64,000 bases of DNA from a virus, in the IMG/VR virus record IMGVR_UViG_3300045988_121909, one strand, 5' to 3'. The number at the start of each line of letters is the position of its first letter. Position 1 is the first letter of the stretch. Positions 16,456-60,136 of the stretch are shown piece by piece. The position numbers and the translations under genes are program-made. Under the pieces are notes generated by a model that saw nothing but the letters and a program-made list of their open reading frames with translations, had not been told where the DNA came from and made no database searches.

Positions 16456-16459
16456 TTGT

Positions 16460-17346: not shown

Positions 17347-17358
17347 AAGGTACTATAA

Positions 17359-17895: not shown

Positions 17896-17901
17896 AAAGA
17901 T

Positions 17902-19059: not shown

Positions 19060-19071
19060 ATAAGAGAATTT

Positions 19072-19144
19072 CACTGATTACAGTTTAATTGGGTAAACGT
19101 CTGCAATAGCAGAAGATTGCGGGTTCAAGTCCCGTCTTCAGTGG
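19072..19144 (+). tRNA. irregular tRNA-like element (possible pseudo-tRNA)
   Basis: Recognisable D-arm (gtttaattgggtaaac), T-arm (gcgggttcaagtcccgt) and a 6/7 acceptor pairing. No foldable 5-bp/7-nt anticodon arm and no encoded CCA. Confidence 0.3.
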
Positions 19145-19498
19145 GTGCACAGATTCTCTTTATGGCTACTTAGAGCTCTGAGTAGCCGTCTACGGTCACA
19201 CAGTACAGCCTGCACGCGGCGTGACTGCTACATAACTAATGTACTAAAGAATGGACATTATGAAAAGGGTAAGTCAGTGAGTAGCCATGTCGGCGCAATA
19301 GCTGAGATAATCTTACTTGGTAGTGAAGTTAGTTTTAATCTAACGTATAACTTTTCATAATAATGAGTAGCTCAATTTTCTACCGCCAGTAATGAGGAAA
19401 TACGAGAGTGAAAGTCAAACTTATGTAGCCGATATTCGTATTAGTCGGTAAAGCTCTAAAGCTAGCTAGACAGAGCCTACATAAGTCAGTCCATATAT

Positions 19499-19574
19499 GC
19501 TGGTATAGCTCAATTGGTAGAGTACTTGTTTTGTAATCAAGGTGTTGGGGGTTCAAATCCCTCTATCAGCTCCA
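19499..19574 (+). tRNA. tRNA-Thr(TGT), second copy with a different body
   Basis: Acceptor gctggta/tatcagc; anticodon loop ttTGTaa with U-U at 31-39; T-arm gggggttcaaatccctc; CCA. Confidence 0.65.
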
Positions 19575-19575
19575 G

Positions 19576-19602
19576 TTTATGCAACGTATGTTGCATTTTT
19601 TT
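19576..19602 (+). terminator. rho-independent terminator
   Basis: Hairpin atgcaac-gtat-gttgcat followed by a T9 run. Confidence 0.65.
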
Positions 19603-19664
19603 TTATGTTAGTTTACAAGTTGATAAAAATAGTTTATTATATCTATAGAGGAGATTAAAAAACT

Positions 19665-20291
19665 ATGAGTACATTAACTACATTAATTAATTTTGTATCA
19701 ATATTGATAATTATATACAATACGCTTGATGCTTTATTATTTAGCAGAGCAAGACTTAATAAGCAGCTTAGTACTCTTGCTGAAGAAAAGCATAAATCAT
19801 CGTTTGCAATGATTGTATCGCTTGCGATTATATTAGTGGTAAATACATATTTCGTGATTACCACTGATACATCTCAATATTTGTTTGCAGGCGAAGTATT
19901 TCTTGTTTTTATAATGTTTATGAATTATATTTCATTCATTACAAAAGAAGAGTGTTGTACAGTAGTTATTGAAGATACTGTACGAAATACAATTAATATT
20001 GTGCGTATGGAAAATATTAAGCTATGTAAAAAGTATTCAGACGTACTACCTGCTGAATTAGTTAATGATGTTTTAAACTATAATGGCGAAATTAATTTTA
20101 ATTATGCAGGTTATCGAGAAGATTTTTGCAAAGAGATTGTTAAACCGTACTATGAAAAATTATTAATAAGAGAAACATTTAATACAGATGAAGAAATAGA
20201 ATCGTTTGAAATGAATGTACTCTTAAAAGAATTAATACGGTTTTACGCTAATATGCGTGAATTCGTAAACGAGCATGAGTGTATAAGATAA
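19665..20291 (+). CDS. membrane protein (208 aa)
   Basis: Two N-terminal TM helices; soluble C-terminal domain. Confidence 0.5.
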   Translation: MSTLTTLINFVSILIIIYNTLDALLFSRARLNKQLSTLAEEKHKSSFAMIVSLAIILVVNTYFVITTDTSQYLFAGEVFLVFIMFMNYISFITKEECCTVVIEDTVRNTINIVRMENIKLCKKYSDVLPAELVNDVLNYNGEINFNYAGYREDFCKEIVKPYYEKLLIRETFNTDEEIESFEMNVLLKELIRFYANMREFVNEHECIR

Positions 20292-20301
20292 AGGAGAGAC
20301 T

Positions 20302-20967
20302 ATGATATTAGTAGAGTATTTAATATTCAGTTTATATTTATTTTTTCAATTTATTATGTTTTTAGTATTTAATGACATCGCTAAGATAGATTTTAAAGTC
20401 GATACGTCTTCAAACGATATTACAGTCGCATTTCTTAAATGGGTATTAAGCTTTTGGTTTACGGTTAATTCTGTAGCTATGGTTGCAGCAATGTTAAATG
20501 TTTTATTTGTAAAAAGTTTCTCTATTATCTTTGGCATTATGATTATTTTAGTTGCAGTAATACATATACTCTTATGTACATATATGAAAAAGAGTGTAAA
20601 AGAACTAAAAATAAAAGAAGTATTAACTGCTTGTTCAGACAGAGACTACGATGTAAACGCGATAGAAAGTTACATTCACTCTTATAACATAGATAAGATA
20701 TATAAAGAGCTTATCCTACCTCTTCATAATTTAATCATAGCAAGAGATAGCTTTAAAACAGTTGAAGCGCAAGAAAAGTATGATGAAGTAGTACTAAACG
20801 AAGAAATAGAAATATTTATGAAGAATCTAGAGTATGTAATTAATGAAGAAAAAGAAAATCGTGAGAAAGCAAGACAGCAAAAAGAAAACATAGCAAAAAT
20901 ATCTGATGAAAAGATACTAGACAATATAAAGAAAAACTACAAAGGGTTAGAAAAATACTACGAGTAG
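20302..20967 (+). CDS. membrane protein (221 aa)
   Basis: Three or four N-terminal TM helices; Lys/Glu-rich C-terminus. Confidence 0.5.
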   Translation: MILVEYLIFSLYLFFQFIMFLVFNDIAKIDFKVDTSSNDITVAFLKWVLSFWFTVNSVAMVAAMLNVLFVKSFSIIFGIMIILVAVIHILLCTYMKKSVKELKIKEVLTACSDRDYDVNAIESYIHSYNIDKIYKELILPLHNLIIARDSFKTVEAQEKYDEVVLNEEIEIFMKNLEYVINEEKENREKARQQKENIAKISDEKILDNIKKNYKGLEKYYE

Positions 20968-20996
20968 TTTACGTATCAAGCCATTTGTGATATAAT
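20967..20996 (+). promoter_or_regulatory. promoter GTTTACG-N17-TATAAT positioned to transcribe solo omega-RNA-like copy 3
   Basis: gtttacgtatcaagccatttgtgatataat, ending 7 nt before the conserved aatgcggttgacgac. Confidence 0.5.
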
Positions 20997-21003
20997 AATA
21001 TTA

Positions 21004-21121
21004 AATGCGGTTGACGACCGTATTCTCGCTTGGTAAATTTGCTCTAGAGGGTAGTTAGTTTTAAAGCTAACGAGAGTGACCTAAGCTTACCCAGGAATGC
21101 GCTTGAGCGCAACGTCATAAT
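21004..21121 (+). ncRNA. solo omega-RNA-like / TnpB right-end element, copy 3
   Basis: Conserved with copies 1 and 2. Followed about 15 nt later by a hairpin (aaagagaat..attctcttt) and a T-run. Confidence 0.5.
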
Positions 21122-21161
21122 ATTATTTATTAAAGAGAATTTACCTATTCTCTTTTCATTT

Positions 21162-21239
21162 GCAGAAGTAGTTCATATTGGTTAGAACGTTACCTTGCCA
21201 AGGTAAAGGCTGCGAGTTCAATTCTCGTCTTCTGCTCCA
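21162..21239 (+). tRNA. tRNA-Gly(GCC)
   Basis: Acceptor gcagaag/cttctgc; anticodon arm ttacc ttGCCaa ggtaa; CCA. Confidence 0.8.
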
Positions 21240-21242
21240 TAC

Positions 21243-21319
21243 GGGCTCATAGCTCAGCTGGATAGAGCAATAACCTTCTAAGTTATTTGTCCAAGGTTCG
21301 ACTCCTTGTGAGCTCGCCA
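21243..21319 (+). tRNA. tRNA-Arg(TCT)
   Basis: Anticodon arm ataac ctTCTaa gttat; T-arm caaggttcgactccttg; CCA. Confidence 0.8.
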
Positions 21320-21323
21320 ATAT

Positions 21324-21408
21324 AGCGGGGTGATGAAATTGGTAGACATACAGGAATTTGACTCCTGCGCCTTAAAGCTTGTGGGTTCAAGTCCCACCCC
21401 CGCTGCCA
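21324..21408 (+). tRNA. type II tRNA (long variable arm) with apparent anticodon TTG
   Basis: Acceptor agcgggg/ccccgct; anticodon arm cagga atTTGac tcctg; 14-nt variable arm; T-arm gtgggttcaagtcccac; CCA. The isotype is ambiguous, because the Gln anticodon sits on a Leu/Ser-type body. Confidence 0.5.
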
Positions 21409-21415
21409 GATACAT

Positions 21416-21495
21416 TGCGGAGTGGAGAAGTGGTTATCTCGTCAGGCCCATAACCTGAAGGTTTATCGTCGGTTCGAATCCGACCTCCGCAACCA
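21416..21495 (+). tRNA. tRNA(CAT) number 1 (Met, or Ile2 if lysidinylated)
   Basis: Acceptor tgcggag/ctccgca; anticodon arm tcagg ccCATaa cctga; 9-nt variable loop; T-arm gtcggttcgaatccgac; CCA. Confidence 0.65.
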
Positions 21496-21504
21496 ATACT
21501 TTTT

Positions 21505-21581
21505 GCGTCACTAGCTCAATTGGATAGAGTGCCTAACTACGAATTAGTAGGATGAGGGTTCAAGTCCTTCGTGACGCGCCA
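21505..21581 (+). tRNA. tRNA-Arg(ACG)
   Basis: Acceptor gcgtcac/gtgacgc; anticodon loop ctACGaa; T-arm gagggttcaagtccttc; CCA. Confidence 0.75.
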
Positions 21582-21596
21582 GATACGGGAAGATAC

Positions 21597-21676
21597 TCAA
21601 GTTTGGTGAAGAGGGCAGTTTGCTACACTGCTAGGATGTAACAGTCGCGTGAGTTCGAGTCTCACTCTTCCCGCCA
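21597..21676 (+). tRNA. tRNA-Ser(GCT), type II
   Basis: Acceptor gggaaga/tcttccc; anticodon arm gcagt ttGCTac actgc; long variable arm; T-arm gtgagttcgagtctcac; CCA. Confidence 0.75.
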
Positions 21677-21679
21677 TTT

Positions 21680-21756
21680 GTACCATTAGCTCAGTAGGTT
21701 AGAGCAGGCGGCTCATAACCGCAAGGTCCTTTGTTCAAATCAAAGATGGTGCACCA
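21680..21756 (+). tRNA. tRNA(CAT) number 2
   Basis: Acceptor gtaccat/atggtgc; anticodon loop ctCATaa; T-arm ctttgttcaaatcaaag; CCA. Confidence 0.65.
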
Positions 21757-22970: not shown

Positions 22971-23088
22971 TTTAATCTCTCTTACATTTTTACTTTTAGC
23001 TAATAATATTTACGTCAAGAGCACTAGAGTCTCTCAGAAGTTAATCTCGTACGCCTGAGATATATCTGAGAGCCATACGGAGGTATAA

Positions 23089-24840
23089 ATGGATATAAGA
23101 ACACAAATGAAGTTGTTTAACGCTGTTATTGTAGATAATAAGACTAGTGAGTTCTACCCAGAGCTTTTGAAAGATTATTCTATTGTCGTGCCTAAGTCAA
23201 TAGATTTCTGTATAGCTGCAGAACTTGCAAAGAAATATGGCACACCAGCTGCTGCACTTACTGCTACTTTTTATGATAGCAAGGAATTTGTTGAATCACT
23301 AGATGAAGTAACAGCGAAGGTATTGCAGATTATACACTATCTATCAACATACGGTGGTATTGAAGAGTTGCGTAATGATGGCAACGTTTTCTCTATGAAC
23401 AATGGAGAAATAGAAGGTATAGTTAAGGCAAAGATTAACTTTATTAACACTATTACTCTTGACGAAGCGATTGAGAAGATTAAGACGCTAGTACAGACAA
23501 ACATTGCTCTTGACTCTGACGATGTATTGAGTATTTATGAGTTTATTGAAGCAAATGGCATTGTGCTCGAAAACATCAACAACAGAGAGCTTGAAATAAT
23601 GTATATCGCTAATATCGGTGCTGATGCTGTAGGTCTTGATACTCTTATGCGTGTGATTAATTATACTGTTACAGGTAATACTCTTTTTGTTAATCGTAAT
23701 CTTGTAAGAGAGCTTGACAAGAAGCATTATCTTATGAATGCTTATGTTATAAATCAGCTTTTGTATAGAGAGTTAACAACTAACTTCGAAAATACTGTAA
23801 GAGACGCTAATAGATACAGAGATATTCTTATGCTTTGCAAGAGACATTGTAGCAAAGAAACAATTACTCTTATAAATAGAGCCCTTAGACAGAGTAAGAC
23901 AAAGGCTGTTCCAAAGAAGTTCACTAAGATTGAGAGATTTTTTGAGCTATCAGAAAAAGAGCAGCTGGATATGGTTGATAATATCAACGTAGTTAAGGCT
24001 ACTCAGATTCTCAATGCAAATAAGCAGAGAACAAATGACGATTTTACTATTTATACTATTAGAAATGGCAAGAAGTTTATAACTGACAAGGTAAGCCCTA
24101 AGAGACTAACAGGAAAAGTAGTAAACGCTCTTGAAGATGTTATTCGTAAGCATATTCAGTCTTTGAATATCAAGTTACCTGAGAATGTAGATACCGCTAT
24201 GCCTACATCTTTGAAGCGTATGCTTGGTCATTTACCTGCTTGTACAAAGATTACTCTACCTAGAAAGAGCTACAGCGTTGGTGTCTACTGGGATACGAAG
24301 CACGTCGATATAGACTTGCACGCAAAGACGCGTTCTTGCCATGTTGGTTGGAATGGTTATACTCATCAATACGGCTTAGCATACTCTGGTGATATGACTA
24401 ACACTGATGAAAACGGTTATGCTGCTGAGTATATCTCAATAGACGAATCAGTAAGAGATTACATTTTATTCGATGTTAGAATGTACTACAATGGCGGTTG
24501 TGCAGAAGATATGAAGTTGATGGTTTCAGATATATCTAAGAATGTCGATTACTTTGCTAATAACGTAATATATGATATGCTAGTCGACGTAAATACGTCT
24601 CGTAACATCTGTAACGTGCTAGTAGACACTTATTCATCTGAAGATGAAATATACATTTATCTACTATCAGGCGTTACGACATCTGATATTGTATCTTGCG
24701 ATGTATGTGAAGATATACAAGACATTGATATTTATAAGAGCGTAGTAAGAAATCAGACATATATCAAGCAGTTCACTGACGACAGCGTTGAAGAAGTTAT
24801 TGATTTAGATAATTTTGATTGTGGCTGTCTGCTTAAGTGA
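23089..24840 (+). CDS. hypothetical protein (583 aa)
   Basis: Long ORF with RBS (acggaggt); no recognisable motif. Confidence 0.55.
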   Translation: MDIRTQMKLFNAVIVDNKTSEFYPELLKDYSIVVPKSIDFCIAAELAKKYGTPAAALTATFYDSKEFVESLDEVTAKVLQIIHYLSTYGGIEELRNDGNVFSMNNGEIEGIVKAKINFINTITLDEAIEKIKTLVQTNIALDSDDVLSIYEFIEANGIVLENINNRELEIMYIANIGADAVGLDTLMRVINYTVTGNTLFVNRNLVRELDKKHYLMNAYVINQLLYRELTTNFENTVRDANRYRDILMLCKRHCSKETITLINRALRQSKTKAVPKKFTKIERFFELSEKEQLDMVDNINVVKATQILNANKQRTNDDFTIYTIRNGKKFITDKVSPKRLTGKVVNALEDVIRKHIQSLNIKLPENVDTAMPTSLKRMLGHLPACTKITLPRKSYSVGVYWDTKHVDIDLHAKTRSCHVGWNGYTHQYGLAYSGDMTNTDENGYAAEYISIDESVRDYILFDVRMYYNGGCAEDMKLMVSDISKNVDYFANNVIYDMLVDVNTSRNICNVLVDTYSSEDEIYIYLLSGVTTSDIVSCDVCEDIQDIDIYKSVVRNQTYIKQFTDDSVEEVIDLDNFDCGCLLK

Positions 24841-28588: not shown

Positions 28589-28690
28589 CTTCTGACTGCT
28601 GTTTTTATCATAGGCGGTAATTATTATTAAAAGAGCATAAAAGTTTACGAGAGACGATTCTGATACGTCTGGAGTATATCTCAGAGCTAT
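28580..28690 (+). repeat. palindromic intergenic repeat element (MITE-like), inverted copy of 39694-39801
   Basis: Reverse complement of the 39694-39801 element; contains the 16-bp perfect palindrome centred on gagatatatctc. Confidence 0.6.
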
Positions 28691-28741
28691 ATTTTACTAT
28701 ATATGTAAAATAAAACATTTAACATAAAATTGTTTACAGTT

Positions 28742-38898: not shown

Positions 38899-39693
38899 AT
38901 GTTATCAAAGATTTTTAAAAAGTACGAAGTTATAATCAAGACGTTTGGTTCTGACTCAACATACACTATTTCAGGTAACGCTAATGAGATTAGACGCCAG
39001 TTAAAAGGCATTAGAGTTAGTGAAGAAGTAGTGTTTAACTGTGACATATCTGCAGAATGTACATTTATTCGAGACGCATTCAACAAGAGTATTGTAAAAT
39101 GTGCGTCTACAAAAGAGCTTGAAGAGGTTGTTAAAGTAGATTGTTTTATATCTGATTATACGATTGTTACAGTAAAAACAAGATTTATTAAAGCCGATAC
39201 GATTGACAAGAATCGTGTAAATAAGTTCGGCGAGAATATAGAAGAGAAGCGCAGTAAAGCATTCCAGAATCTTAAGACAAAGATTGATAAGTTTAATACT
39301 CAGTATGATAAATTGAAAGAAAACATACAAGCAATAAAAAATTCTAAGCTTGCTGAAGACGCTTTGAACGAAATTCTTAGTGAGAGTAAAGTACGAAGCT
39401 TACGTCATCTTATAAGAGGTGATTATTTTGCTATCTGCGCAAAATCAGAAGCAATTATTGGTTTTGAAAAATTCTTTATCACTGCTGAGCTAGTTGCAGA
39501 TAAGGCAGTGGTAGATAGTGAACAAATGTATTTACGCTTTGAATTAGTCTCAATTGCACGTAAGTCTGATAGACACGATGTACTTGATTTAAAAAGAAAC
39601 GTAAGGAACATAACTACTGAAGAGAAATTGAAGTACGTTGATTTTATCACAGAAGCTAATATTGATATCTCTAATAAGCTTAGCGAACTATAG
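38899..39693 (+). CDS. hypothetical protein, GEN-I-x(2)-KR paralog family member 5
   Basis: Contains ...NKFGENIEEKRSK... Confidence 0.55.
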   Translation: MLSKIFKKYEVIIKTFGSDSTYTISGNANEIRRQLKGIRVSEEVVFNCDISAECTFIRDAFNKSIVKCASTKELEEVVKVDCFISDYTIVTVKTRFIKADTIDKNRVNKFGENIEEKRSKAFQNLKTKIDKFNTQYDKLKENIQAIKNSKLAEDALNEILSESKVRSLRHLIRGDYFAICAKSEAIIGFEKFFITAELVADKAVVDSEQMYLRFELVSIARKSDRHDVLDLKRNVRNITTEEKLKYVDFITEANIDISNKLSEL

Positions 39694-39801
39694 CCCTCAG
39701 ATATATCTCAGAGACTCCAGAATCGTCTCTCGTAAACTTTTATGCTCTTTTAATATAAATTACCGCCTATGATAAAAACAGCAGTCAGAAGTTAAATCTG
39801 G
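39694..39801 (+). repeat. palindromic intergenic repeat element (MITE-like), direct copy of 60031-60136
   Basis: ctcagatatatctcagag...cgtctctcgtaaacttttatgctcttttaata..attaccgcc..cagaagttaa. Near-identical to 60031-60136 and inverted relative to 28580-28690. Confidence 0.6.
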
Positions 39802-45430: not shown

Positions 45431-47242
45431 ATGTTTAATTATAAAGAAGCAATAAGGGAATTAAATAAGCACACAGAGTTATATGATTCTGGCACTCCAG
45501 TACTTTCAGATAAAGAATGGGACGATTTATATTTTCAAGTAGTAGAATATGAAAAGACTCATACTCCTGATAAAGATTCACCTACGCAGAATATTCACTC
45601 TAATACATTGAATAAAGTAGAGCATTCTACTCCTATGCTTTCTTTAAAGAAAACAAAAGATATTGAAGAAGTAAAGAAATTCTTTAAGAATAAAGACATT
45701 ATTGCTATGGCAAAGCTAGATGGCTTGACTTGTAGATTAACATATAAGAATGGTAAGTTATTCAGAGCAGAGACTAGAGGAAATGGCAGAGTAGGTGAAG
45801 ATGTTACGCATAACGCTATGCTTATACACAATATCCCTAAATCTCTACCTTATGATATTGTAGTTGAAGGCGAAGTTATTTGTAAATACTCTGATTACAC
45901 TGGTTCTTCTAATGTAAGAAATTACGCTGCAGGTAGTATGAGACTTAAAGTTGCAGAGCAGAGAAATTTATCATTTATCGCTTTTGATTTAATCTCTTCT
46001 GATAAGTCATATTCTCTACTATCTGAAAAGCTATATGATTTAGGTAGAGATTTTGAAGTAGTGCCTTATAGATTTGATTTTGATACAGAGGCATTAAGAG
46101 AACAATGTGTTGATTTACCTATTGACGGCCTAGTTTATAAGATTAACAATATTAAAGAATATGAGAGCTTAGGCAAAACAGAACATAGTCCTAACGCTGC
46201 TTTAGCTTTTAAATTCTATGACGAGCTTTATGAAACAGAGTTGCTAGATATTATATGGACACAAGGTAAGACAGGTAATCTTACTCCTGTAGCGAAGTTT
46301 AAGCCTGTTATTATTGATGGCACAAATGTTCAGAGAGCTAGTATGCATAATCTTGATATAGTAGAAAAGATATTACGTACACCGAGCGTTGGGCAGAAAG
46401 TTTATGTGTGTAAAAGTAATATGATTATTCCTCAGATTCATCACGCAGGCGAGTCTACAAACAAGATTATTGAAATTCCAACAATTTGCCCTGACTGCGG
46501 CTCTGAATTAAAAATCGATACAAAAGGAGTAACACAGCTCGTATGCGTAAATAAACATTGTCCTGCTAAGATAAAGAATAAGTTAATTAGATTTGCAGGT
46601 AAACAAGCGTTGGATATTGAAGGCATCTCTAACTCTACTATTGAGAAGTTGATTAAGCTAGGTTGGTTAACTTGCTTATCAGATTATTTTAAACTCTATA
46701 CTCACAAAGAAGAGTGGTTGCAGCTTGATGGCTTTTCCGATGTTTCTGTAGATAAAATTTTAAATAATATCCCTAAAGAGATAGAGCTATGGAAATTAAT
46801 CGCTAACTGTGGTTTAGAAAATATCTCTAAGCAAACAGCAATAAAGCTAGTTGATTATTTTAATGATTACTCTTCTTTTAGAAAAGCTATTGATGAAAGA
46901 TTTGATTTTTCTCAGATACCTGGTATCAGTTCAGGCATTTCTAATACACTGCTAAACTTTGATTATTCAGAATTAGACGAAGTGCTTAACTGCATCAAAG
47001 AAGTACAACTAAATAAAAAGAGCGGGAATGTAAAAGTTTGTCTAACAGGCAAAATGAGCAAAGCAAGAAAAGATATAGTTAAATTTTTAGAAGAGCATAA
47101 CGCTGAAGAAGTTGCTATAAACAAAGCTAATTTTCTTGTTTGTAACGAACCTAACTCAAGTAGTAAGTATAAGAAAGCAGTGCAATTAGGCATAAAGATT
47201 ATAACTGAAGAAGAGTTGTACGCTAAATTGAACGTTAAGTAA
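45431..47242 (+). CDS. ligA: NAD-dependent DNA ligase (LigA-type)
   Basis: Adenylation motif AKLDGLTC (KxDG), Cys4 zinc finger CPDCGSEL..CVNKHCP, HhH region and C-terminal BRCT-like domain (KVCLTGKMS). Length 604 aa. Confidence 0.85.
   Translation: MFNYKEAIRELNKHTELYDSGTPVLSDKEWDDLYFQVVEYEKTHTPDKDSPTQNIHSNTLNKVEHSTPMLSLKKTKDIEEVKKFFKNKDIIAMAKLDGLTCRLTYKNGKLFRAETRGNGRVGEDVTHNAMLIHNIPKSLPYDIVVEGEVICKYSDYTGSSNVRNYAAGSMRLKVAEQRNLSFIAFDLISSDKSYSLLSEKLYDLGRDFEVVPYRFDFDTEALREQCVDLPIDGLVYKINNIKEYESLGKTEHSPNAALAFKFYDELYETELLDIIWTQGKTGNLTPVAKFKPVIIDGTNVQRASMHNLDIVEKILRTPSVGQKVYVCKSNMIIPQIHHAGESTNKIIEIPTICPDCGSELKIDTKGVTQLVCVNKHCPAKIKNKLIRFAGKQALDIEGISNSTIEKLIKLGWLTCLSDYFKLYTHKEEWLQLDGFSDVSVDKILNNIPKEIELWKLIANCGLENISKQTAIKLVDYFNDYSSFRKAIDERFDFSQIPGISSGISNTLLNFDYSELDEVLNCIKEVQLNKKSGNVKVCLTGKMSKARKDIVKFLEEHNAEEVAINKANFLVCNEPNSSSKYKKAVQLGIKIITEEELYAKLNVK
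46999..47022 (+). promoter_or_regulatory. 24-bp motif AGAAGTACAACTAAATAAAAAGAG (copy 2) embedded in-frame inside ligA
   Basis: Exact consensus copy encoding KEVQLNKKS in the linker before the BRCT domain. Confidence 0.4.
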
Positions 47243-47247
47243 AATAT

Positions 47248-47320
47248 AGCTCTCAGATATATCTCAGACGTACGAGAATCATTTCTGAGAGCTTTTTATG
47301 CTCTTAATGATAGTTTATAT
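47248..47320 (+). repeat. palindromic intergenic repeat (short form) acting as a terminator-like hairpin
   Basis: agctctcaga-tatatctcagacgtacgagaatcat-ttctgagagct followed by a T-run; the ttatgctctt..taat tail is shared with the long copies. Confidence 0.55.
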
Positions 47321-47361
47321 ACATAAGCTAGAAATAACGTAGAGAGATTAAAAGAGAGACT

Positions 47362-48561
47362 ATGGAAGTAATACGCAACTGCCCAGTATGTAATAAAGAG
47401 TTTAATGCAAAACGTGGACTATCTTCATATTTAAGTAAAACTTGCTCAAGAAGTTGTGCAGGTAAATTAAGTACTAAAGAAAAAGTATTTAACTGTAGTA
47501 AATGTAGCAAAGAGTTTAAACGTTATAATTATGAAAAACAAGATTTATGTATAGAATGTTTTAACGCTGAAAAGAATTGGAATAATTTTTGCTTAAATTG
47601 TAAAGTACGCAAAACCTCTTCAGAAACAAGTGATTTTTGTTCTGAACAGTGTCAAAGAGCTATGAATAAACAAGCTAAAGTAAAAAAGATTCATTATTGT
47701 ATAGAATGCGGACAGCGTTTTCAATCTTATGGAGATGCTAAGTTCTGTTCCTCTTCTTGTAGAAATACTCATACACGTAAAAATATGACGTATAAACCTA
47801 GAGAATGTATTTACTGCGGGAATATATTTACTCCTACCTCTTCATCTCAGAAAGTTTGTACTGATTTTCATACAATAGAATGCAAATATTGCAGTAAAGA
47901 AATAAAGTTGCAAGGCACTATCCCTAAGAATAAGCATTTCTGCGATAGAGTGTGTCAAACATTATATCAGCATAAATCATCTTTAAATTTAAAATTATTA
48001 GATGAGTATAAAAATGCTAATGATTGGGCTAAGAAATTTGAGAATAAAAGAAAGCGTAAACCTAATGCAGTAGATTTTAAAGATTATTTTGGAGTAAATC
48101 TACCTAAATGGGTTGATTATTCTAATTTTGCTAAGAATACAACTAAGTCAAGATTAGAGCAAAAAGTCTTGAATTATATAATAGATAATTTTGAACTAGC
48201 AGTAGAAATAAACAGAAAAATTCTACCTGTTACAAAATACAAACAAGAAATTGATATACTATTGCCTGACATACAATTAGGCATTGAAGTGCAAGGCAAT
48301 GCTACTCATAGTAAAGTTGAAGGCGAATTCCCAATGGAACTTTACGGAGGTGCTCTTAAATCTACTCCAGCAGATTTTAAAAAGAAACAAAAAGCTGCAG
48401 AGGAATTAGGCATCACTCTAATAGAAATATGGGAAGATGAAATAGAAAACAATAGCTTTAAAAAAGAGCTATCATGTTTAATAAACGAAAGGATTGTAGA
48501 TAAAATATGGCAAGAAAGAAAGTCACTGAACACTATTCTGCTGAAAACATCACATCTCTAA
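47362..48561 (+). CDS. homing-endonuclease-like protein with multiple zinc ribbons and a C-terminal nuclease domain
   Basis: At least eight CxxC pairs and a CSRSCA module like the other HE-like genes. C-terminal DILLPD..GIEVQG..H...E motif. Sits between ligA and the topoisomerase genes. Confidence 0.55.
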   Translation: MEVIRNCPVCNKEFNAKRGLSSYLSKTCSRSCAGKLSTKEKVFNCSKCSKEFKRYNYEKQDLCIECFNAEKNWNNFCLNCKVRKTSSETSDFCSEQCQRAMNKQAKVKKIHYCIECGQRFQSYGDAKFCSSSCRNTHTRKNMTYKPRECIYCGNIFTPTSSSQKVCTDFHTIECKYCSKEIKLQGTIPKNKHFCDRVCQTLYQHKSSLNLKLLDEYKNANDWAKKFENKRKRKPNAVDFKDYFGVNLPKWVDYSNFAKNTTKSRLEQKVLNYIIDNFELAVEINRKILPVTKYKQEIDILLPDIQLGIEVQGNATHSKVEGEFPMELYGGALKSTPADFKKKQKAAEELGITLIEIWEDEIENNSFKKELSCLINERIVDKIWQERKSLNTILLKTSHL

Positions 48562-50987
48562 CAGATGTAGAGCATCTTAAGAAAAAGATTAACTTAACGT
48601 TTGGTAGAGAAACAGGTGATGCTGAGCACCCATACTCTCTGCAGAAAACAGTGTCAATCAGAGAAATTATTGATAACAGCGTTGGCGAAATCATAAGAAA
48701 TTTTGCAGATAGAATTGAAGTAACATTCGATAATGATGGTTTTGTAACAGTGCTTGATAACGGTAGAGGTTTACCTATTGACACTGCTACTGACGCATTA
48801 GGAAATGAAGTAAATGGTTTTATTATTACTCTTGGAACTCTTCGTTCTGGTGAGAATTTAGGTAGTAATTCATCTGGTGGTAAGAGTACATCTCAAAACG
48901 GTTTAGGAGCATCTGCTGCTTGCGCGTTATCTGAGAGAGTAGATATTGAAGTTTATAGAAACAATAAAATCTATTACATGTCATTTAAAGATTTTGTACC
49001 AGGCTATTTTAATGATGAAGATGAGTTTAAGTCTTTAAAGAATAAAGCCACTCTAAAATCAAGAAAAGATGATAGAGCAGAGTATTATAAGACTAATTTT
49101 CCTACAGGTACTAAGATAAGAATTAAGCTTGATGATAATATTTTCTCAAGCCCTTACCCTGTAGACGTAGATGATTTAAATGATAGACTTAAAGGTGTTA
49201 GTTATCTTTTACCTAAGTCTCATATTAAAGTAATTGATAACTTTAAGAATAATGCTGAGTATGAGTATTACTCTGAGAATGGTTTAAGAGACGCACTGCC
49301 TGAAGGCGCAGATGTTGTAGAGTTCACTACCTCTAATGATTATCTTGAGAAAAATGTTGCAGTAATGACTGATAGTGCTATTCAGCATAAAGATTTAATT
49401 CGTACTGTTGATATAGAGCTTGCATTTTGCTACGCCGATGAGAGTAACGTAGATACATACGTAAACACTATAAAAACACGACTAAAAGGTGTACATCTAC
49501 AAGCTTTTGAAGACGCTCTTGCAGATTCATTTAACTCAGAGATTAAAGGTAAAGATAAGCCTAATGCTGAAGATTATAGAGAAGGTTTAAATCTACAATT
49601 ATCTGTGTTTATTCCAGACCCTCTATTCTCTGGACAGACAAAAGAAGAGCTTGCAGGTAAAGAAGTAAAGAACGCTATCTATGACGCAGTAAAAGCAGAG
49701 CTAATGAAATTTATTTCTACGAAAGAAAATTCGTCTATTGTAGAAAAGATTACATCAAGAGCTGTTACAATGATGCAAGCTAGAAAATCAATCGCTGATA
49801 GTAAGAAAGTAGCAAAAGAAAAGCTGAAATCTGATATTAACGGTATGCGTAATAGAGTTGAGAACTTTATCGACTGCAGAAGTAAAGACTCAAGTAAAAA
49901 AGAACTGTATATAGCAGAGGGTGCATCAGCACTTGGTTCATTGAAGCAAGCAAGAAACCCTGAGTATCAAGCTTTATTCCCTATTAGAGGTAAGATTAAG
50001 TCAGTATATAAGACAAGTGTTACAGACGCGTTAAGCAGTCAACTTATAAAAAATATTATTCAGCTTGTCGGTACAGGCGTAAATACAAAAACTACAAAGT
50101 GTGATTTAAGTAAGTTAAATTTTGACAAAATTATATTTGCGCACGATTCAGATGTTGATGGCTGTTTTTCTGGAAATACAAAAATTAAATCAACTGATGG
50201 TAACATTTATACTTTTGAGCAGCTTATACAAGATAAGATTACATCAGTTGGAGTATATGCTAAAGACAAAAATGGAAATATAGTTCAAGCAGAAGGCGTA
50301 TTCCCTAGAGTCACAAAAGAGGTTAATGAGCTAATAGAACTTGAATTTGAAAATAAATTTAAAGTTAGATGCACTCTTGACCATTTATTCTTATTGGACT
50401 CAGGTGAGTATAAGGCTGCTATGTGTTTAACTACTGATGATTTGATTAGTTCAGAGTCTGGCAAATGCAGAATTTTAAACTCTACGATAATACACTTAGA
50501 CGAACCTATTAAAGTGTATGACATAACTGTTCCTGAGTATGGTAGCTTCCTAATCAGCACTTCAAATGATAATACAGAAGGTGTATTCGTACATAACTGT
50601 CATATCAGCTCTTTGCTTTTAACTCTCTTTTATACTTTTATGCCAGAACTTATAAAAGACGGGCACGTTTACTCATTACAAACTCCATTATTTGAGATTG
50701 TGTATAAAGACAATACAAAAGCATTTGCGTATGATGAACAAGAAAAGATTAAGCTCACGAAAGACAGAGACGTAAAGAAAATAATGCGTAATAAAGGTCT
50801 TGGTGAAATCTCAGCTGAAGATATGGCACTTTGCTTAAATGAAAGCACTCAGAGATTAGTAAGATTTACAATGGAAGACGCTAAACACGCTGCTAAATTC
50901 ATAGAATTATTTATGGGCAACGATTCTAATGTAAGAAAAGATTACATTACTGAACACGCAGATGAATATGAATTAGATTTTGAATAA
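48507..50987 (+). CDS. DNA topoisomerase II large subunit (T4 gp39 / GyrB-like), intein-containing
   Basis: GHKL ATPase N-terminus (YSAENI..EH..K, NG.GLP), Toprim region (EGASA, FAHDSDVDG) and C-terminal GyrB-like tail. Host-protein continuity DVDG|CHISSLLLTLFY is restored after removal of the 145-aa insert. Confidence 0.8.
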   Translation: MARKKVTEHYSAENITSLTDVEHLKKKINLTFGRETGDAEHPYSLQKTVSIREIIDNSVGEIIRNFADRIEVTFDNDGFVTVLDNGRGLPIDTATDALGNEVNGFIITLGTLRSGENLGSNSSGGKSTSQNGLGASAACALSERVDIEVYRNNKIYYMSFKDFVPGYFNDEDEFKSLKNKATLKSRKDDRAEYYKTNFPTGTKIRIKLDDNIFSSPYPVDVDDLNDRLKGVSYLLPKSHIKVIDNFKNNAEYEYYSENGLRDALPEGADVVEFTTSNDYLEKNVAVMTDSAIQHKDLIRTVDIELAFCYADESNVDTYVNTIKTRLKGVHLQAFEDALADSFNSEIKGKDKPNAEDYREGLNLQLSVFIPDPLFSGQTKEELAGKEVKNAIYDAVKAELMKFISTKENSSIVEKITSRAVTMMQARKSIADSKKVAKEKLKSDINGMRNRVENFIDCRSKDSSKKELYIAEGASALGSLKQARNPEYQALFPIRGKIKSVYKTSVTDALSSQLIKNIIQLVGTGVNTKTTKCDLSKLNFDKIIFAHDSDVDGCFSGNTKIKSTDGNIYTFEQLIQDKITSVGVYAKDKNGNIVQAEGVFPRVTKEVNELIELEFENKFKVRCTLDHLFLLDSGEYKAAMCLTTDDLISSESGKCRILNSTIIHLDEPIKVYDITVPEYGSFLISTSNDNTEGVFVHNCHISSLLLTLFYTFMPELIKDGHVYSLQTPLFEIVYKDNTKAFAYDEQEKIKLTKDRDVKKIMRNKGLGEISAEDMALCLNESTQRLVRFTMEDAKHAAKFIELFMGNDSNVRKDYITEHADEYELDFE
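50163..50597 (+). other. mini-intein (145 aa) inserted in the Toprim DxDxDG-HI motif of the topoisomerase gene
   Basis: Begins with Cys (CFSGNTKI, block A), has block B TLDHLFL, ends VFVHN followed by Cys+1. In frame; no homing-endonuclease domain. Confidence 0.8.
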
Positions 50988-50999
50988 AGGAGGAGAATA

Positions 51000-52967
51000 A
51001 TGCATATAACAGATTTAGAAGTAGGTTCAAGTATCAGAGACAATATGATGTTAATGAGCTTAGAAGCTATTACAAATAGAGCATTGCCTATTCTTGAAGA
51101 TGGCCTTAAGCCTTCTCAAAGAAAAGTATTATATACAATGAAAACTATGGGACTTTTCAATAAGCTAGCAAAAAGCGCTAACGTTGAAGGTCAAACAATG
51201 AAAATACATGCACATTCGGGAACATACTCGACAGCAGTGAATATGACTAGAGAAAAAGAGAGTTTACTTACACCTTTTATTTTTGGTAAAGGTTCTTTTG
51301 GTAAAGTATACTCTTCAGCGATGGATGCTGCTGCGCCAAGATATTCAGAATTATCACTTGCGCCAATCTGTCACGAAATGATGGACAAGTTGTATATGCA
51401 CCCAGAGAATATGGTTGATAACTATGATGGCACATTAAAAGAACCTGTTTTACTCTCTATGCCTTTTCCTAATATACTTGCAAACCCTCAGTCAGGTATT
51501 GGTATTGGTTTCGCTTGCGATTTTCCTTCTTTTAATCTAGCTGAGTTATGTGATGCTTGTATAGCAGTGCTGAATGGAAATAAGAATATTCGTGAAATTA
51601 TGCCTGTACCAGATTTTTCTACTGGAGCTTATGTTCTATATAAAGACGAAGACGTTGCAGATATATTTGAGAATGGTTCAGGTAAAGTAACTCTTAGAGC
51701 AAAGCTTAGTATTGATAAAGAGAATAACGTCATTAATGTAGACGAAATTCCTTATAATACAACTGCTGAGAGTATAATTGACTCTATTCAGAAGTGTTAT
51801 GATAAAGGGCAGTTTCCTGAGATTCTTGACGTAAAAGACGAAATTGGTATTGACGGCTTTAGAGTCTCTATTGAGCATAAGAGAAGTGCAGATGTAAAAG
51901 CTCTTATAAATAAGCTTTATCTACTAACTCCTCTTCAGAGTACATTCTCTTGTAATATGACGTTAGTTTATAATAACAGACCTGCTAAAATGGGTGTGTA
52001 TGAAATTATAGACAAGTGGATAGAGCATAGAAAAGCTTGGGTACAAGACGAAATAAACTTTGAAATTGCTGAAAAAGAAGATAAACTACATTTACTTAAA
52101 GGCTTAGCTCAGATTCTACTGAATATTGATAAAGCTGTAGAGATTGTTAAAGGTAGTAAGAGTGATAATGAAGTAATCTCTGGCTTAATGAATGAATTCT
52201 CTATTGATGATATTCAAGCTGAGTACGTTGCTAATATTAAGCTAAGAAACTTTAATGAAGAGTATGTGCTTAATCGTACAAAAGAAATTACTGAGCTAGA
52301 AAAAGCTATCAAAAAGCTTAAGAAAACAAAGCCTATTGATGTAATGATTGACGACTTAAACAGAGTTAGAGATACATACGGCATCCCAAGAAAAACAGAG
52401 ATTTTGACTGAATGGGAAGAAGTTAAGCCTTTAGCGAAAGAAAAGAAAGAAGTTAAGATAGATGGTACATCTACTCTATTCATCGGCAAAGATATTAGAA
52501 GAGTAAATGGTGAGAGCAGAGCTAAAACTCCAGACCATTACGAAAAGATTGTTGTTGATAATAGAGATAGTATTCTTCTATTCACTAATAAAGGAAGATG
52601 TTTTAAAATATTCGTGTATAAGATTAAACCCAATATCGCACACGAATTTGAAGGTGGTTTAGTTAAATTCAAGGAATTAGAAATGGGTGAGCAGATTATC
52701 GCTAAGATTCCTCTAACTAAAGAAACTAAGTCAAAAACATTATTTATTGTTTACGATAAGAAAGTTGCAAGAATTCCTCTTGATGGTTTTGATAATTCAA
52801 GAAGATTAATGTCAAAAGGAATTAGACCTGACGCTGTTGACGTACGCCTCGTAGACGACGATGAAATATTTGAAGTAAACGGTCAAAAATTTAATACTAG
52901 CCAGTATAGCATAACTAAAAACCGACTTGCACAAGGTGTTAATATTAGAAAGTTTGTCTCAGAGTGA
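51000..52967 (+). CDS. DNA topoisomerase II subunit (T4 gp52 / GyrA-like)
   Basis: N-terminal LEAITNRALPILEDGLKPSQRKVLY matches the GyrA/gp52 breakage-reunion motif; 655 aa. Confidence 0.8.
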   Translation: MHITDLEVGSSIRDNMMLMSLEAITNRALPILEDGLKPSQRKVLYTMKTMGLFNKLAKSANVEGQTMKIHAHSGTYSTAVNMTREKESLLTPFIFGKGSFGKVYSSAMDAAAPRYSELSLAPICHEMMDKLYMHPENMVDNYDGTLKEPVLLSMPFPNILANPQSGIGIGFACDFPSFNLAELCDACIAVLNGNKNIREIMPVPDFSTGAYVLYKDEDVADIFENGSGKVTLRAKLSIDKENNVINVDEIPYNTTAESIIDSIQKCYDKGQFPEILDVKDEIGIDGFRVSIEHKRSADVKALINKLYLLTPLQSTFSCNMTLVYNNRPAKMGVYEIIDKWIEHRKAWVQDEINFEIAEKEDKLHLLKGLAQILLNIDKAVEIVKGSKSDNEVISGLMNEFSIDDIQAEYVANIKLRNFNEEYVLNRTKEITELEKAIKKLKKTKPIDVMIDDLNRVRDTYGIPRKTEILTEWEEVKPLAKEKKEVKIDGTSTLFIGKDIRRVNGESRAKTPDHYEKIVVDNRDSILLFTNKGRCFKIFVYKIKPNIAHEFEGGLVKFKELEMGEQIIAKIPLTKETKSKTLFIVYDKKVARIPLDGFDNSRRLMSKGIRPDAVDVRLVDDDEIFEVNGQKFNTSQYSITKNRLAQGVNIRKFVSE

Positions 52968-52989: not shown

Positions 52990-53019
52990 GTTTACATTTA
53001 CTCTAAGCTGTGTTATAAT
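52990..53019 (+). promoter_or_regulatory. promoter GTTTACA-N17-TATAAT
   Basis: gtttacatttactctaagctgtgttataat. Confidence 0.55.
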
Positions 53020-53042
53020 TTTTGCATAAAGAGGTGATAAAT

Positions 53043-53648
53043 ATGAATAATGATAACATCTATGAGCTTATTGAGAGACATCAACAACTACAAAATGAGC
53101 TAAAAGAACTAGAGAACGAGATTAAAGCAAAAGAAAACAAGTTTGTATATCGTAAAGACGTAGACATCAAGTGCCAGCTTGAAAGTCTTTTGAACGCATA
53201 CGGCTTTGACGATGTAGTAAGAGTAGTATCAAGACAGATTGGTAAAAAGACACAGTATGAGTTTAGACTCAAGCACACGCGTAATCTGCTTAAACAGTTT
53301 AATTCTGATTTAGGTAGTAGAAAGCTATTTAATCAAGCTAATCATTTTCTAAGATTCATCACTAAAGAAGATGTAATGCTTATTAAAAGAGAGCGTGCTT
53401 TATATGAACTATATGACCGTATATCTGTACCTACTGATTTGGTTTACAAGATACGCTACTTAGGTTCAAACATAGACTATATAGAATTTAAAGACGCTGA
53501 AAATATGAATAGTATTATGTATGACTACTCAAATAAAAAGTTAAGTTTTCGTTGCAAAGCTCTTCCAGGAGTTAAATGCTCAGTAGATTTATATGAACAC
53601 CGTGACGTATTTTCAAAAGTCACTTATTACCGTAATTTGATAGGGTAG
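53043..53648 (+). CDS. hypothetical protein (201 aa)
   Basis: ATG after agaggtgat. Confidence 0.5.
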   Translation: MNNDNIYELIERHQQLQNELKELENEIKAKENKFVYRKDVDIKCQLESLLNAYGFDDVVRVVSRQIGKKTQYEFRLKHTRNLLKQFNSDLGSRKLFNQANHFLRFITKEDVMLIKRERALYELYDRISVPTDLVYKIRYLGSNIDYIEFKDAENMNSIMYDYSNKKLSFRCKALPGVKCSVDLYEHRDVFSKVTYYRNLIG

Positions 53649-53762
53649 AAGTTAAAGCTCTACTCTTATTTTAATAAGGATGAGATTGACTTTGATGTCA
53701 TAATCGAAACTAAAGATTTTAAGTTTATGTAATGTATAATTATACATTAGAGAGAGAATAAA

Positions 53763-54162: not shown

Positions 54163-54282
54163 ACGAGAGATACCAGAATCATTTCTAAGAGACTTTTATA
54201 TTTTATAATGGTTTATACGACAAGTATGCTAAAGTTTACGAGAGACGATTTTGATACGTCTGAGATATATCTGAGAAACATA
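54163..54282 (+). repeat. composite palindromic intergenic repeat (two partial inverted copies)
   Basis: cgagagataccagaatcatttctaagag...gtttacgagagacgattttgatacgtctgagatatatctgag. Confidence 0.5.
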
Positions 54283-54307
54283 TATAAGTGAAAATGGAGA
54301 AAGATAA

Positions 54308-58287: not shown

Positions 58288-59454
58288 ATGACTTGTAAAG
58301 CATTCGAGCTTAAATCACTAAGTCTAAGCTTTCTAAATATCAAAAAAGAAATGCTAACTAAATTCTTTAGGCAAGCGAATTATATTTATAACAGTTTAGT
58401 TGCTGATAGTAAAAAATTTAAAACTACTGACAAAGAAATTACTATTTTATGCGGTGACCATTATGAAATTAGGCGACTTGATTTAGGTTCCGGCATTAAG
58501 CAAGGTATTCGTGATAAATTTATCACTAATTGCAAATCTTTAAAAGGTAAAAAAGATAGTGGTGATAAAATTGGCAAGCTAAAGTTTAAATCTTATACTA
58601 ACGCTATTCCACTTAGGCAATACAAAAATACTTATAATATAAATTTTGATAAAAATACTATTAGAATACAGTGTATTAAGCAAGCATTTAAAGTTAGAGG
58701 TTTAAAGCAAATACCTGAGAATGCTGAAATATGCAATGCTGAACTTATCCGTAAAGCAAGTGGGTACTATATACACGTAGTCATTTTTGTGCCTAAAGAA
58801 AATAAACAAGCAAATAGCAGACAAATTGGTTTAGATTTTGGGATAAAATCTAACGTCACATCGTCTAATGGTGAAAAATATGATGTTAAAGTACCTGAGT
58901 CTAAAGGGACAAAATTAGCATCTCGTAAAACGAATCATAAAAAGAAAGGTTCTAAAAATAGGCAAAAAGCCCAACAAAAGCTAAGAATAGCTTATGAAAA
59001 AGATACAAATAGGAAATTAGATAAAGCTAAGAAGTTAGTTTCATATCTAGACTCTTATGATTTAATAGCATTTCAAGATGAAAATATAAAAGATTGGCAT
59101 AAAGAGTTTGGAAAAGTCGTACAGCATTCAGCTATGGGGTTCATAAAAGCAGTTTTGAAGACCAAAGCAAATTCCATAATGATAAGTAGATATTTTCCAA
59201 GTACTCAAATATGCTCAGTTTGCAGTAAGCTAACACCTCACTCTCTGAATAAGCGAGATTATGACTGTAGCTTTTGTGGTTATCACCACGATGACAGAGA
59301 CGTGAAAGCAGCACAAACGATTCTTGATTATGTAAATGTCTCTCTGGGACGGAGAGCAAATAGTCTTGTGGAGTTAAAGACCTCTGCGCTTAAAGATTTT
59401 TCTTCAAGTATAAGTCTAGACTATGAAGCAGGAAGACCTTACTCTCTAGAGTAA
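58288..59454 (+). CDS. tnpB: IS200/IS605-family TnpB (OrfB), full length, second distinct copy
   Basis: 388 aa; RuvC-I region LDFGIKS, RuvC-II IAFQDEN, zinc finger CSVCS..CSFCG, RuvC-III HHDDRDVKAAQTIL. Its 3' flank is unrelated to the omega-RNA-like repeat at 567-682. Confidence 0.8.
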   Translation: MTCKAFELKSLSLSFLNIKKEMLTKFFRQANYIYNSLVADSKKFKTTDKEITILCGDHYEIRRLDLGSGIKQGIRDKFITNCKSLKGKKDSGDKIGKLKFKSYTNAIPLRQYKNTYNINFDKNTIRIQCIKQAFKVRGLKQIPENAEICNAELIRKASGYYIHVVIFVPKENKQANSRQIGLDFGIKSNVTSSNGEKYDVKVPESKGTKLASRKTNHKKKGSKNRQKAQQKLRIAYEKDTNRKLDKAKKLVSYLDSYDLIAFQDENIKDWHKEFGKVVQHSAMGFIKAVLKTKANSIMISRYFPSTQICSVCSKLTPHSLNKRDYDCSFCGYHHDDRDVKAAQTILDYVNVSLGRRANSLVELKTSALKDFSSSISLDYEAGRPYSLE

Positions 59455-59562: not shown

Positions 59563-59578
59563 AAAAGGATGCTAAATA

Positions 59579-59635
59579 TAGCTCTGAGATATACTCCAGA
59601 CGAACGAGATTGACTTCTGAGAGCTTTTCATGTAT
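59579..59635 (+). repeat. palindromic intergenic repeat (short form) with terminator-like hairpin
   Basis: agctctgagatatactccagacgaacgagattgacttctgagagct followed by tttcat. Confidence 0.55.
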
Positions 59636-59715
59636 TTATTGTAAAAACTATCACTAATCAAAAACTTATTGTCAGAAGTAAAATCTGACGCAGAAGATTA
59701 AAGAGAGGTAATATA

Positions 59716-59980: not shown

Positions 59981-60030
59981 TGTGAGAAGAATCCGTATAA
60001 TGTTATTCCAGTGAGTAGTATTACAGAAGT

Positions 60031-60136
60031 GCTCTGAGATATACTCCAGACGAACCAGAGTCGTCTCTCGTAAACTTTTATGCTCTTTTAATAATAATTA
60101 CCGCTTAAGACGAAAATTATTCTCAGAAGTTAAAGG
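60031..60136 (+). repeat. palindromic intergenic repeat element (long form), direct copy of 39694-39801
   Basis: gctctgagatatactccagacgaaccagagtcgtctctcgtaaacttttatgctcttttaataataattaccgc..tctcagaagttaaagg. Confidence 0.6.

Follow-up and report, generated by a model that had tools for sequence, protein, structure and literature searches.

Inteins in cellular GyrB proteins are well known, with 33 cases in bacteria and others in archaea (Novikova et al., 2016, PMC4760082). The Ssp GyrB intein of Synechocystis sp. PCC 6803 ends in a C-intein reading GVFVHN, followed by Ser (PMC2794532), and an engineered mini form of it splices efficiently (PMC3620165, PMC2794532). The present work concerns a 145-residue insert, in all probability a natural mini-intein of class 1, which interrupts the gene for what its domains indicate to be the large subunit of a phage type IIA topoisomerase, at positions 50163-50597 (+) of the IMG/VR virus record IMGVR_UViG_3300045988_121909, a stretch of 64,000 nucleotides (nt) hereafter called the window.

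The block G of the insert, GVFVHN, is identical to the C-intein of six amino acids (aa) of the split intein Ssp GyrB S11, the activity of which has been shown experimentally (PMC2794532), and further motifs are shared with Ssp GyrB-type inteins, namely CFSGDT..., CTPDH.F.L.DG.YK.A..L and VYDI.VP...F. The Ssp GyrB intein is likewise of class 1 and likewise resides in a GyrB-type subunit, inside the Toprim domain, but it has Ser at +1, a natural endonuclease domain and a bacterial host, whereas the insert has Cys at +1, is naturally mini and is found in a phage. The splicing domains are homologous but the insertion site is not shared, i.e., cellular GyrB inteins sit in the Toprim Glu motif, EGDSAGG/C...HN/SAKQGR (here and below, the slash marks an insertion boundary), ~80 residues upstream of the DxDxDG/C site of the window, which reads DSDVDG/CHISS. 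The query for these comparisons, which we take to be the Ssp GyrB intein sequence and of which the last six residues are confirmed in print, retrieved GyrB-named fragments with up to 84% local identity. That the insert could be an allele of the Ssp GyrB intein was considered and rejected, as the fragments named by their source all read EGDSAGG/CFSGDT and GVFVHN/SAKQGR.

In phage T4, the 50-nt bypass of gene 60 falls on the same codon boundary as the insert, the gap following right after Gly46 of DADHDG and translation resuming at Leu47 (in the T4 locus, L010, gene 60 starts at 301 and the gap is annotated at 439-488, with a boundary equivalent to 50162/50163 of the window). MobA insertions always fall in Toprim, where they split the metal site, and the bypass disrupts the MobA target (bioRxiv 10.1101/2022.08.31.505936). 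In both the T4 and the window cases, a mobile element interrupts an invariant Toprim motif without destroying the enzyme, but the mechanisms are unrelated: on the one hand, ribosomal bypass of an untranslated RNA gap together with a free-standing, gene-splitting HNH endonuclease, and on the other hand, a translated domain with predicted protein splicing. Inteins have also been described in a Toprim-domain protein of cluster A1 mycobacteriophages (Kelley et al., 2016, PMC5050341); this host is a primase/topoisomerase-like protein and not a type IIA subunit. One metagenomic Topo2L open reading frame (ORF) is split by a VSR-containing intein (bioRxiv 10.1101/2022.08.31.505936).

The GyrB of the cultured jumbo Ralstonia phage phiRSL1 (AB366653 ORF333; L004:1372-4020) carries an insert at the same site, DPDPDG/...SSN/CHINSLLL, with an intein-like C-terminal region (TIGR01443, 19.6 bits for a cut-off of 15.6) and a Cys+1. 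It differs from the insert of the window in being 179 aa long and highly diverged, with Pro1, a Cys at the position of the block-F Asp (VYCLTV) and an SN end, and judging from these residues it may be a class-3-like or degenerate intein. The phiRSL1 record carries no intein annotation for it, and a literature search returned no report of it as an intein, nor any report of the exact intein of the window. Among metagenomic GyrB-like proteins, the Toprim domain presents at least five insertion points, namely (i) ELFI/CEGDSA, (ii) EGDSAGG/S, (iii) A/C-DxDxDG, (iv) DxD/C-DG and (v) DxDxDG/C-HI, the latter being that of the window and also found in P0122, P0124, P0131, P0146, P0150, P0154 and P0172. 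As such, the acidic Toprim motif, which in phage topoisomerase II was known to be targeted by the T4 MobA/hop cassette, is an intein hotspot as well. A tblastn search with the family consensus matched 65 of 50,697 deposited phage records, in genes for RNR, DNA polymerase, helicase, terminase and dCTP deaminase, and among the 60 matches listed none lay in an annotated topoisomerase. An earlier note on the window, made from the sequence alone, had called inteins uncommon in phage type II topoisomerases; this is borne out for deposited genomes, but qualified by metagenomic data, in which the site and nearby Toprim sites are repeatedly occupied, by the phiRSL1 insert and by the preprint case.

Anatomy and classification of the insert

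The insert lies in frame within a single uninterrupted ORF of 826 aa (48507-50987, +), of which it forms residues 553-697. Its translation, CFSGNTKIKS...TLDHLFLL...EGVFVHN (CFSGNTKIKSTDG...FKVRCTLDHLFLL...IKVYDITVPEYGSFLISTSNDNTEGVFVHN), is preceded by FAHDSDVDG (...KIIFAHDSDVDG) and succeeded by C-HISSLLLTLFY (CHISSLLLTLFY...). Removal of the 145 residues restores the motif DxDxDG-x-HI, as the earlier note had proposed with coordinates and quoted motifs that proved exact upon translation and renewed derivation of the block coordinates, and leaves 681 aa, which is exactly the length of the intein-free P0003, L005, L006 and L007.

Family conservation was judged on an alignment of 28 full-length mini-inteins (A2). 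Block A (CFSGNTKIKSTDG; 50163-50201, +) begins with Cys1, the predicted nucleophile of the N-S acyl shift, and displays the family-invariant residues C1, G4 and G13. Block B (FKVRCTLDHLFLL; 50358-50396, +) contains the Thr71-x-x-His74 pair expected to activate the N-terminal scissile bond, C70, T71 and H74 being invariant in the family. Next comes a linker of only five residues, ESGKC (50454-50468, +), at the very position where the alignment places a ~280-residue insert with a weak HNH signature in the allelic 422-aa intein of a sister phage, L002. In block F (IKVYDITVPEYGSFLIS; 50508-50558, +), Asp120 is conserved while the "YHNF" of the family is "YGSF" (His127 to Gly, Asn128 to Ser); a 7-residue F-G loop, TSNDNTE (50559-50579, +), follows 3' of this block and harbours the N135D difference from another sister phage, L009. 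Block G, GVFVHN (50580-50597, +), provides the penultimate His144 and the terminal Asn145 for the predicted succinimide formation, and the adjoining TGT codon (50598-50600, +) encodes Cys+1, the first residue of the C-extein by comparison with empty alleles and the presumed nucleophile of trans-thioesterification. Besides Cys1, the cysteines of the insert are C70, C88 and C102.

Both curated intein models recognise the insert, TIGR01445 (intein_Nterm) with 35.4 bits for a cut-off of 24.5 and TIGR01443 (intein_Cterm) with 22.4 bits for a cut-off of 15.6, as does PF07591 (Pretoxin-HINT) with 44.5 bits for a cut-off of 27.7, a match that on these profile scores is far beyond chance; PF14890 (Intein_splicing) remains sub-threshold, at 24.8 versus 35.8 bits. 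When 1.84 billion representative proteins were scanned exhaustively with phmmer, the insert had 1584 matches at E<=1e-3 and 309 at E<=1e-10, in very diverse hosts such as T4-like portal proteins, RtcB, GyrB-like proteins and multi-intein giant proteins. A word-indexed protein search with the intein alone as query gave no match, this tool seeming to favour hits of similar length. All 12 invariant columns of the family are kept (C1, G4, G13, C70, T71, H74, Y83, A86, Y119, V123, F129 and N145), together with seven of the eight columns conserved at >=90%, the sole deviation being Asn128 to Ser. With the family alignment as input, AlphaFold2 models the whole chain as a single all-beta domain of canonical HINT fold, with a predicted local distance difference test (pLDDT) score of 97.4 and a predicted template modelling (pTM) score of 0.90. 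The first 42 Foldseek matches in the PDB are inteins plus two bacterial intein-like (BIL) domains, with a probability of 1.00 and template modelling (TM) scores of 0.75-0.85, including Mtu RecA and Npu DnaE (TM 0.83-0.85) as well as Ssp DnaB (TM 0.82-0.84).

The features of class 1 are all present, namely the HINT fold, Cys1, T71-L-D-H74 in block B (invariant in the 28 sequences), GVFVHN followed by Cys+1, and an in-frame insertion at a conserved host site, with 826 aa compared to 681 aa in homologues. Class 3 inteins, by the definition applied here, have no N-terminal nucleophile but a Trp-Cys-Thr motif, with Cys at block F position 4; the insert does not belong there, as it has Cys1 and an Asp at that position (VYDITV). 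No LAGLIDADG, HNH, GIY-YIG, VSR or other nuclease domain was found in the insert with Pfam, NCBIfam or PHROGs; the model comprises the splicing domain alone, with the five-residue linker at the canonical endonuclease site. As such, the description of the insert as an intein, with blocks A, B, F and G, a +1 nucleophile and a HINT fold, and more precisely as a mini-intein, agrees with what the earlier note had read from the sequence. Its ORF is intact in three independent assemblies (the window, L009 and P0001), and no further intein was found in the window using a hidden Markov model of the family on six-frame translations.

Alleles of the insertion site in sister phages

Orthologous loci were recovered by a full-protein search and contig look-ups, the close genomes being ~96% identical at the nt level. 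In L009, with 95.9% nt identity over 7.5 kb, a mini-intein at the identical site differs by N135D and by three synonymous changes, two of which fall in the codons of C70 and H74. In L006 (IMGVR_UViG_3300045988_112802; L006:3001-5046), a ~174-kb IMG/VR phage contig with an overall identity of 96% to the window, rising to 100% in the alignment intervals that adjoin the two junctions, the 435 nt are cleanly missing and GAT GGC TGT CAT ATC yields DSDVDG-C-HISS, i.e., the predicted spliced sequence. L002 and L003 possess a 422-aa intein (protein P0002) at the identical boundary, TDADEDA/CFSGDT...GVIVHN/CHIQS; it shares with the window intein the codon boundary in an orthologous gene, Cys1 and Cys+1, and homologous splicing domains (~57% aa and 64-69% nt identity). 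The N-exteins of L002 and the window are 93% identical at the nt level overall and 97% outside a divergent patch. Unlike the window intein, that of L002 lies in another flanking haplotype and has ~280 extra residues in place of ESGKC (924 nt against 93 nt at the linker position), in which HNH families are matched weakly (PF13392 below its cut-off at E 6e-4; phrog_7545 at E 6.6e-5). That the window mini-intein arose recently from the L002 allele by loss of its endonuclease domain in place was rejected, the splicing domains being 64-69% identical in nt when the genomes are ~96% identical.

Intein-free alleles are found at various distances. L005 and L007 have flanks of the L002 type and an empty site with Met, and the more distant L001 and L008 an empty site with Leu. 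Among the 120 closest homologues, 95 show an unbroken DxDxDG-x-HI motif, and in the other intein-free ones no intein was seen at the site either; the residue after DxDxDG in these 95 is Ala (42), Ser (20), Gly (20), Leu (4), Phe (3), Asn (2), Gln (2) or Arg (2). Because Cys is found there in none of the 95, the Cys of the empty L006 allele is best read, on this sequence comparison, as the footprint of a former intein occupancy ended by precise loss, and less likely as an allele pre-adapted by earlier co-conversion. Both junctions carry the 4-nt direct repeat CTGT, in GG[CTGT]TT and AA[CTGT]CA, consisting of the Cys+1 codon and the preceding base; the repeat arises because Cys1 and Cys+1 share one codon, and it would offer a simple path to precise deletion.

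The intein has the same composition as its exteins, with a GC content of 0.324 and, at third codon positions (GC3), of 0.241; no compositional anomaly was found, and it is therefore a resident element, not a fresh import. Between the splicing domains of the window and L002, nonsynonymous and synonymous divergences (dN/dS) are 0.246/1.878 for the N part and 0.263/1.671 for the C part, i.e., rough ratios of ~0.13-0.16, and such purifying selection is consistent with a maintained function. Identity between the window and L002 is 94-100% along the locus, save in a 1.6-kb patch with sharp bounds (~49857-51455, +), where it drops to 60-88%. This patch runs from ~300 nt before the end of the N-extein, through the intein and the entire C-extein, to ~450 nt into the A-subunit gene. 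Five genomes are 3-4.5% apart outside this patch and fall inside it into two haplotypes 20-27% apart, a distance that matches that of either to the outgroup L008. Both haplotypes are found with and without intein; as the intein-free ones include L006 on the one hand and L005 and L007 on the other, the view that the patch is a co-conversion tract specific to intein gain was rejected. What remains of this idea is two old haplotypes and a reduced divergence around the intein in haplotype A, where the window and L009 differ at 14 of 1131 positions around the intein (1.2%) against 131 of 3141 in the background (4.2%; Fisher P 4e-7), with a mismatch-free tract of 515 nt (49845-50359) across the N-junction (Poisson P 5e-10). 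Together with the haplotype patch, the low divergence and the identical tract are signs of mobility, and point to a recent gene conversion that would have moved the intein region across backgrounds.

Taken together, these alleles suggest a combined scenario, to be held only tentatively and with slightly less than even odds, in which the phage population would retain the two halves of the intein homing cycle at a single site: (i) L006 results from the precise loss of the mini-intein leaving a Cys+1 scar, perhaps via CTGT, (ii) the intein patch has lately spread by gene conversion across genomes 4% diverged, and (iii) the DxDxDG/x boundary is a convergent landing site of three unrelated ways to interrupt an essential motif, namely the mini-intein, the endonuclease-bearing intein and the T4 gene 60 hop. 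In any case, such an allelic series in ~96% identical phages represents unusually clean natural data on intein gain, loss and co-conversion.

Predicted splicing and rival explanations

From the catalytic anatomy, the fold, the purifying selection and the occurrence of the exact spliced sequence as a sister-phage gene, we infer that the insert splices. The gene would be translated as an 826-aa precursor, the Toprim active site of which is split by the 145-aa HINT domain. Cys553 (Cys1), aided by Thr71 and His74, would then turn the Gly552-Cys553 bond into a thioester, which Cys698 (+1) would attack to give a branched intermediate; Asn697, aided by His696 and the block-F Asp120, would cyclise and free the intein, and an S-to-N shift would leave a normal Gly-Cys peptide bond. 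The expected product is a 681-aa subunit with DSDVDG-C-HISS, able to pair with the product of the downstream A-subunit gene. As for the persistence of this nuclease-free element, mutations abolishing splicing would kill a presumably important replication enzyme. Its spread between co-infecting relatives would proceed by homologous recombination or gene conversion; mobilisation could be a matter of general recombination or be helped in trans by the endonuclease-bearing allele present at the same site in sister phages.

The insert is thus best described as a genuine but ordinary mini-intein of class 1, hosted by the large subunit of a phage topoisomerase II, with splicing predicted, to which we assign a probability of about 0.88. 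Several elements weigh on the other side. Block F departs from the family consensus, by His127 to Gly at a family-variable position and Asn128 to Ser in a column conserved at >=90%, and the extra 7-residue F-G loop is present in some relatives but not in all. Besides, synonymous sites are nearly saturated between the two intein alleles, which makes dN/dS rough, all the sequences are metagenome assemblies, and sequence gives no certainty about a splicing activity that is predicted.

The absence of the His-Asn pair of the family from block F (YGSF for YHNF), together with the existence of non-canonical inserts at the site, such as that of phiRSL1 starting with Pro and not with Cys or Ser, would suit a HINT insertion that has decayed and no longer splices, either kept as a permanent domain on the protein surface or marking a dead gene. 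This appears decidedly improbable: the residues of class-1 chemistry are all there (C1, T71, H74, D120, H144, N145 and C+1), the position of the block-F His varies within the family (N, G, S or E), the catalytic codons change only synonymously between the window and L009, with dN/dS ~0.15, and the ORF stays open in all three assemblies. The insert moreover parts the Mg-binding DxDxDG from the next helix, where its retention would probably be incompatible with Toprim function. The insert might also be no true intein but a lineage-specific loop or a BIL domain, a view in favour of which PF07591 outscores PF14890, the latter below its gathering score, and BIL structures (2lwy and 6y75) figure among the Foldseek matches. 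In BIL domains, a conserved +1 nucleophile is typically missing and the location is a variable region, whereas the insert sits at an invariant catalytic motif with HN/C, is missing from 95 homologues, is allelic to an endonuclease-bearing intein and exceeds the cut-offs of both the N- and C-terminal TIGR models. Alignment with intein-containing and intein-free homologues, the check suggested in the earlier note, likewise reveals block A, B and G residues rather than an ordinary loop. This view is scarcely credible.

Another possibility accepts a functional intein but not a purely selfish one: conditional splicing, e.g., through a redox-sensitive Cys1/Cys+1 disulfide, would act as a post-translational switch delaying the topoisomerase during infection. 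A Cys nucleophile at both junctions plus C70, C88 and C102 fit this view, and with an intein in the catalytic metal site the precursor is probably inactive; conditional splicing has reportedly been documented for other inteins, such as that of RadA. Yet no observation requires a switch, the intein is dispensable, as sister phages L006, L005 and L007 do without one, and C70 is invariant throughout the family rather than specific to this host. Such a switch is unlikely, and the plain reading of the insert as a class-1 mini-intein is retained.

Considered alone, the insert is one more intein in a replication enzyme, where inteins are expected. As a natural 145-aa Cys1/Cys+1 intein close in sequence to the biotechnologically used Ssp GyrB intein and with a native Gly(-1)/Cys(+1) junction, the insert is nonetheless a candidate tool. 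For annotation purposes, a single topoisomerase subunit gene with an intein should be called.

Host gene and neighbouring features

The host protein matches the Pfam domains DNA_gyraseB (PF00204), Toprim (PF01751, the match ending at residue 552) and DNA_gyraseB_C (GyrB_C, PF00986), HATPase_c (PF02518) being slightly short of its cut-off, with 25.4 bits against 26.4. Its PHROGs match is phrog_543, "DNA topoisomerase II large subunit" (E 1.6e-110), which agrees with the assignment of the host to topoisomerase II, and of the insertion to the Toprim DxDxDG, in the earlier note. The N-extein (48507-50162, +) encodes the ATPase, the transducer and the first part of Toprim, up to HDSDVDG (50142-50162) with Gly at -1, and the C-extein (50598-50987, +) the remainder of Toprim (C-HISSLLLTLFY...) and the GyrB C-terminal domain, down to the stop codon, as delineated with the ORF, Pfam, phrog_543 and alignment to intein-free homologues. 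An uninterrupted GyrA/ParC-like gene for the partner subunit follows (51000-52967, +; PF00521, E 1e-102). With GHKL ATPase, transducer, Toprim and GyrB C-terminal domains and an A-type partner gene, the host protein is identified, from its sequence, as the large (GyrB-like) subunit of a phage type IIA topoisomerase. The NCBIfam gyrB and parE models match it at E 1e-83 to 1e-113, and because all these scores are under the equivalog cut-offs, it is taken to be neither a bona fide cellular gyrase nor a topoisomerase IV subunit. The label "gp39-like" given in the earlier note is acceptable at the family level; as for the layout, it is the two-subunit one of GyrB/ParE-like and GyrA/ParC-like proteins, in contrast with the three-part gp39/gp60/gp52 of T4.

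The window is phage-like, with large ORFs all on one strand, 25 tRNA genes, a UvsX-like recombinase, RtcB, an NAD-ligase and ThyX, and related viral contigs are ~174-192 kb long. A megablast search with the gene against the 50,697 phage records gave no match, and the phage therefore has no close deposited relative. Orthologous contigs share the order of ligase, topoisomerase B and then A subunits, with ThyX further along, and the small ORFs between ligase and B subunit differ in the distant contig L001.

Between the NAD-ligase and topoisomerase genes of the window, a 399-aa ORF (47362-48561, +) reaches 55 nt into the start of the topoisomerase gene; it is rich in CxxC pairs, matches HNH-endonuclease PHROGs (phrog_1271, E 1e-13) with no Pfam match, and may be a free-standing homing endonuclease. 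A tie between this ORF and the presence of the intein was rejected, as all five close genomes have the aligned region, with or without an intein. Directly 3' of the topoisomerase A gene, L002 carries an IS200/IS605-type pair of Y1 TnpA and TnpB (L002:15310-16796), the counterpart of which in the window (53017-53666) is an unrelated 208-aa ORF. TnpB-like sequences are present elsewhere in the window, at 58288-59454 (388 aa, OrfB_IS605 plus Cas12f1-like TNB) and at window positions 1-681, which match at 79% the end of the L002 TnpB gene and the sequence beyond. Three copies of a ~109-nt repeat (558-666, 3696-3804 and 20996-21104) match the L002 TnpB 3' end or just downstream (~16796-16980); two adjoin tRNA clusters, and they may be insertion sequence ends or remnants of TnpB guide RNA (omega RNA).

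The 25 tRNA genes (26 by Rfam) lie in several clusters at 4238-21756 and cover all amino acids but Pro, which is unusually complete for a phage. A promoter-like motif, TTTTTTTTGTTTACAT-N17-20-TATAAT/TATTAT, is found upstream of genes, with 50-nt copies at 6509, 11957, 33088, 34075, 37546 and 52982, one of which sits directly after the topoisomerase A gene. Intergenic repeats of ~70-110 nt with internal dyad symmetry (CTCAGATATATCTCAGA...) occur at 39686-39796, 47242-47352, 59574-59641 and 60024-60134 (+) and, inverted, at 23026-23096, 28640-28710 and 54231-54301, as well as in L002; one copy separates the ligase gene from the ORF that precedes the topoisomerase gene, and a role as terminators, regulatory sites or miniature mobile elements is possible. 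Of note, RtcB is elsewhere a frequent host of the intein family of the insert (NF052663 match; P0288, P0296), and the RtcB tRNA-splicing ligase gene of the window (14327-15520, +; phrog_1075, E 2e-131) is without intein.

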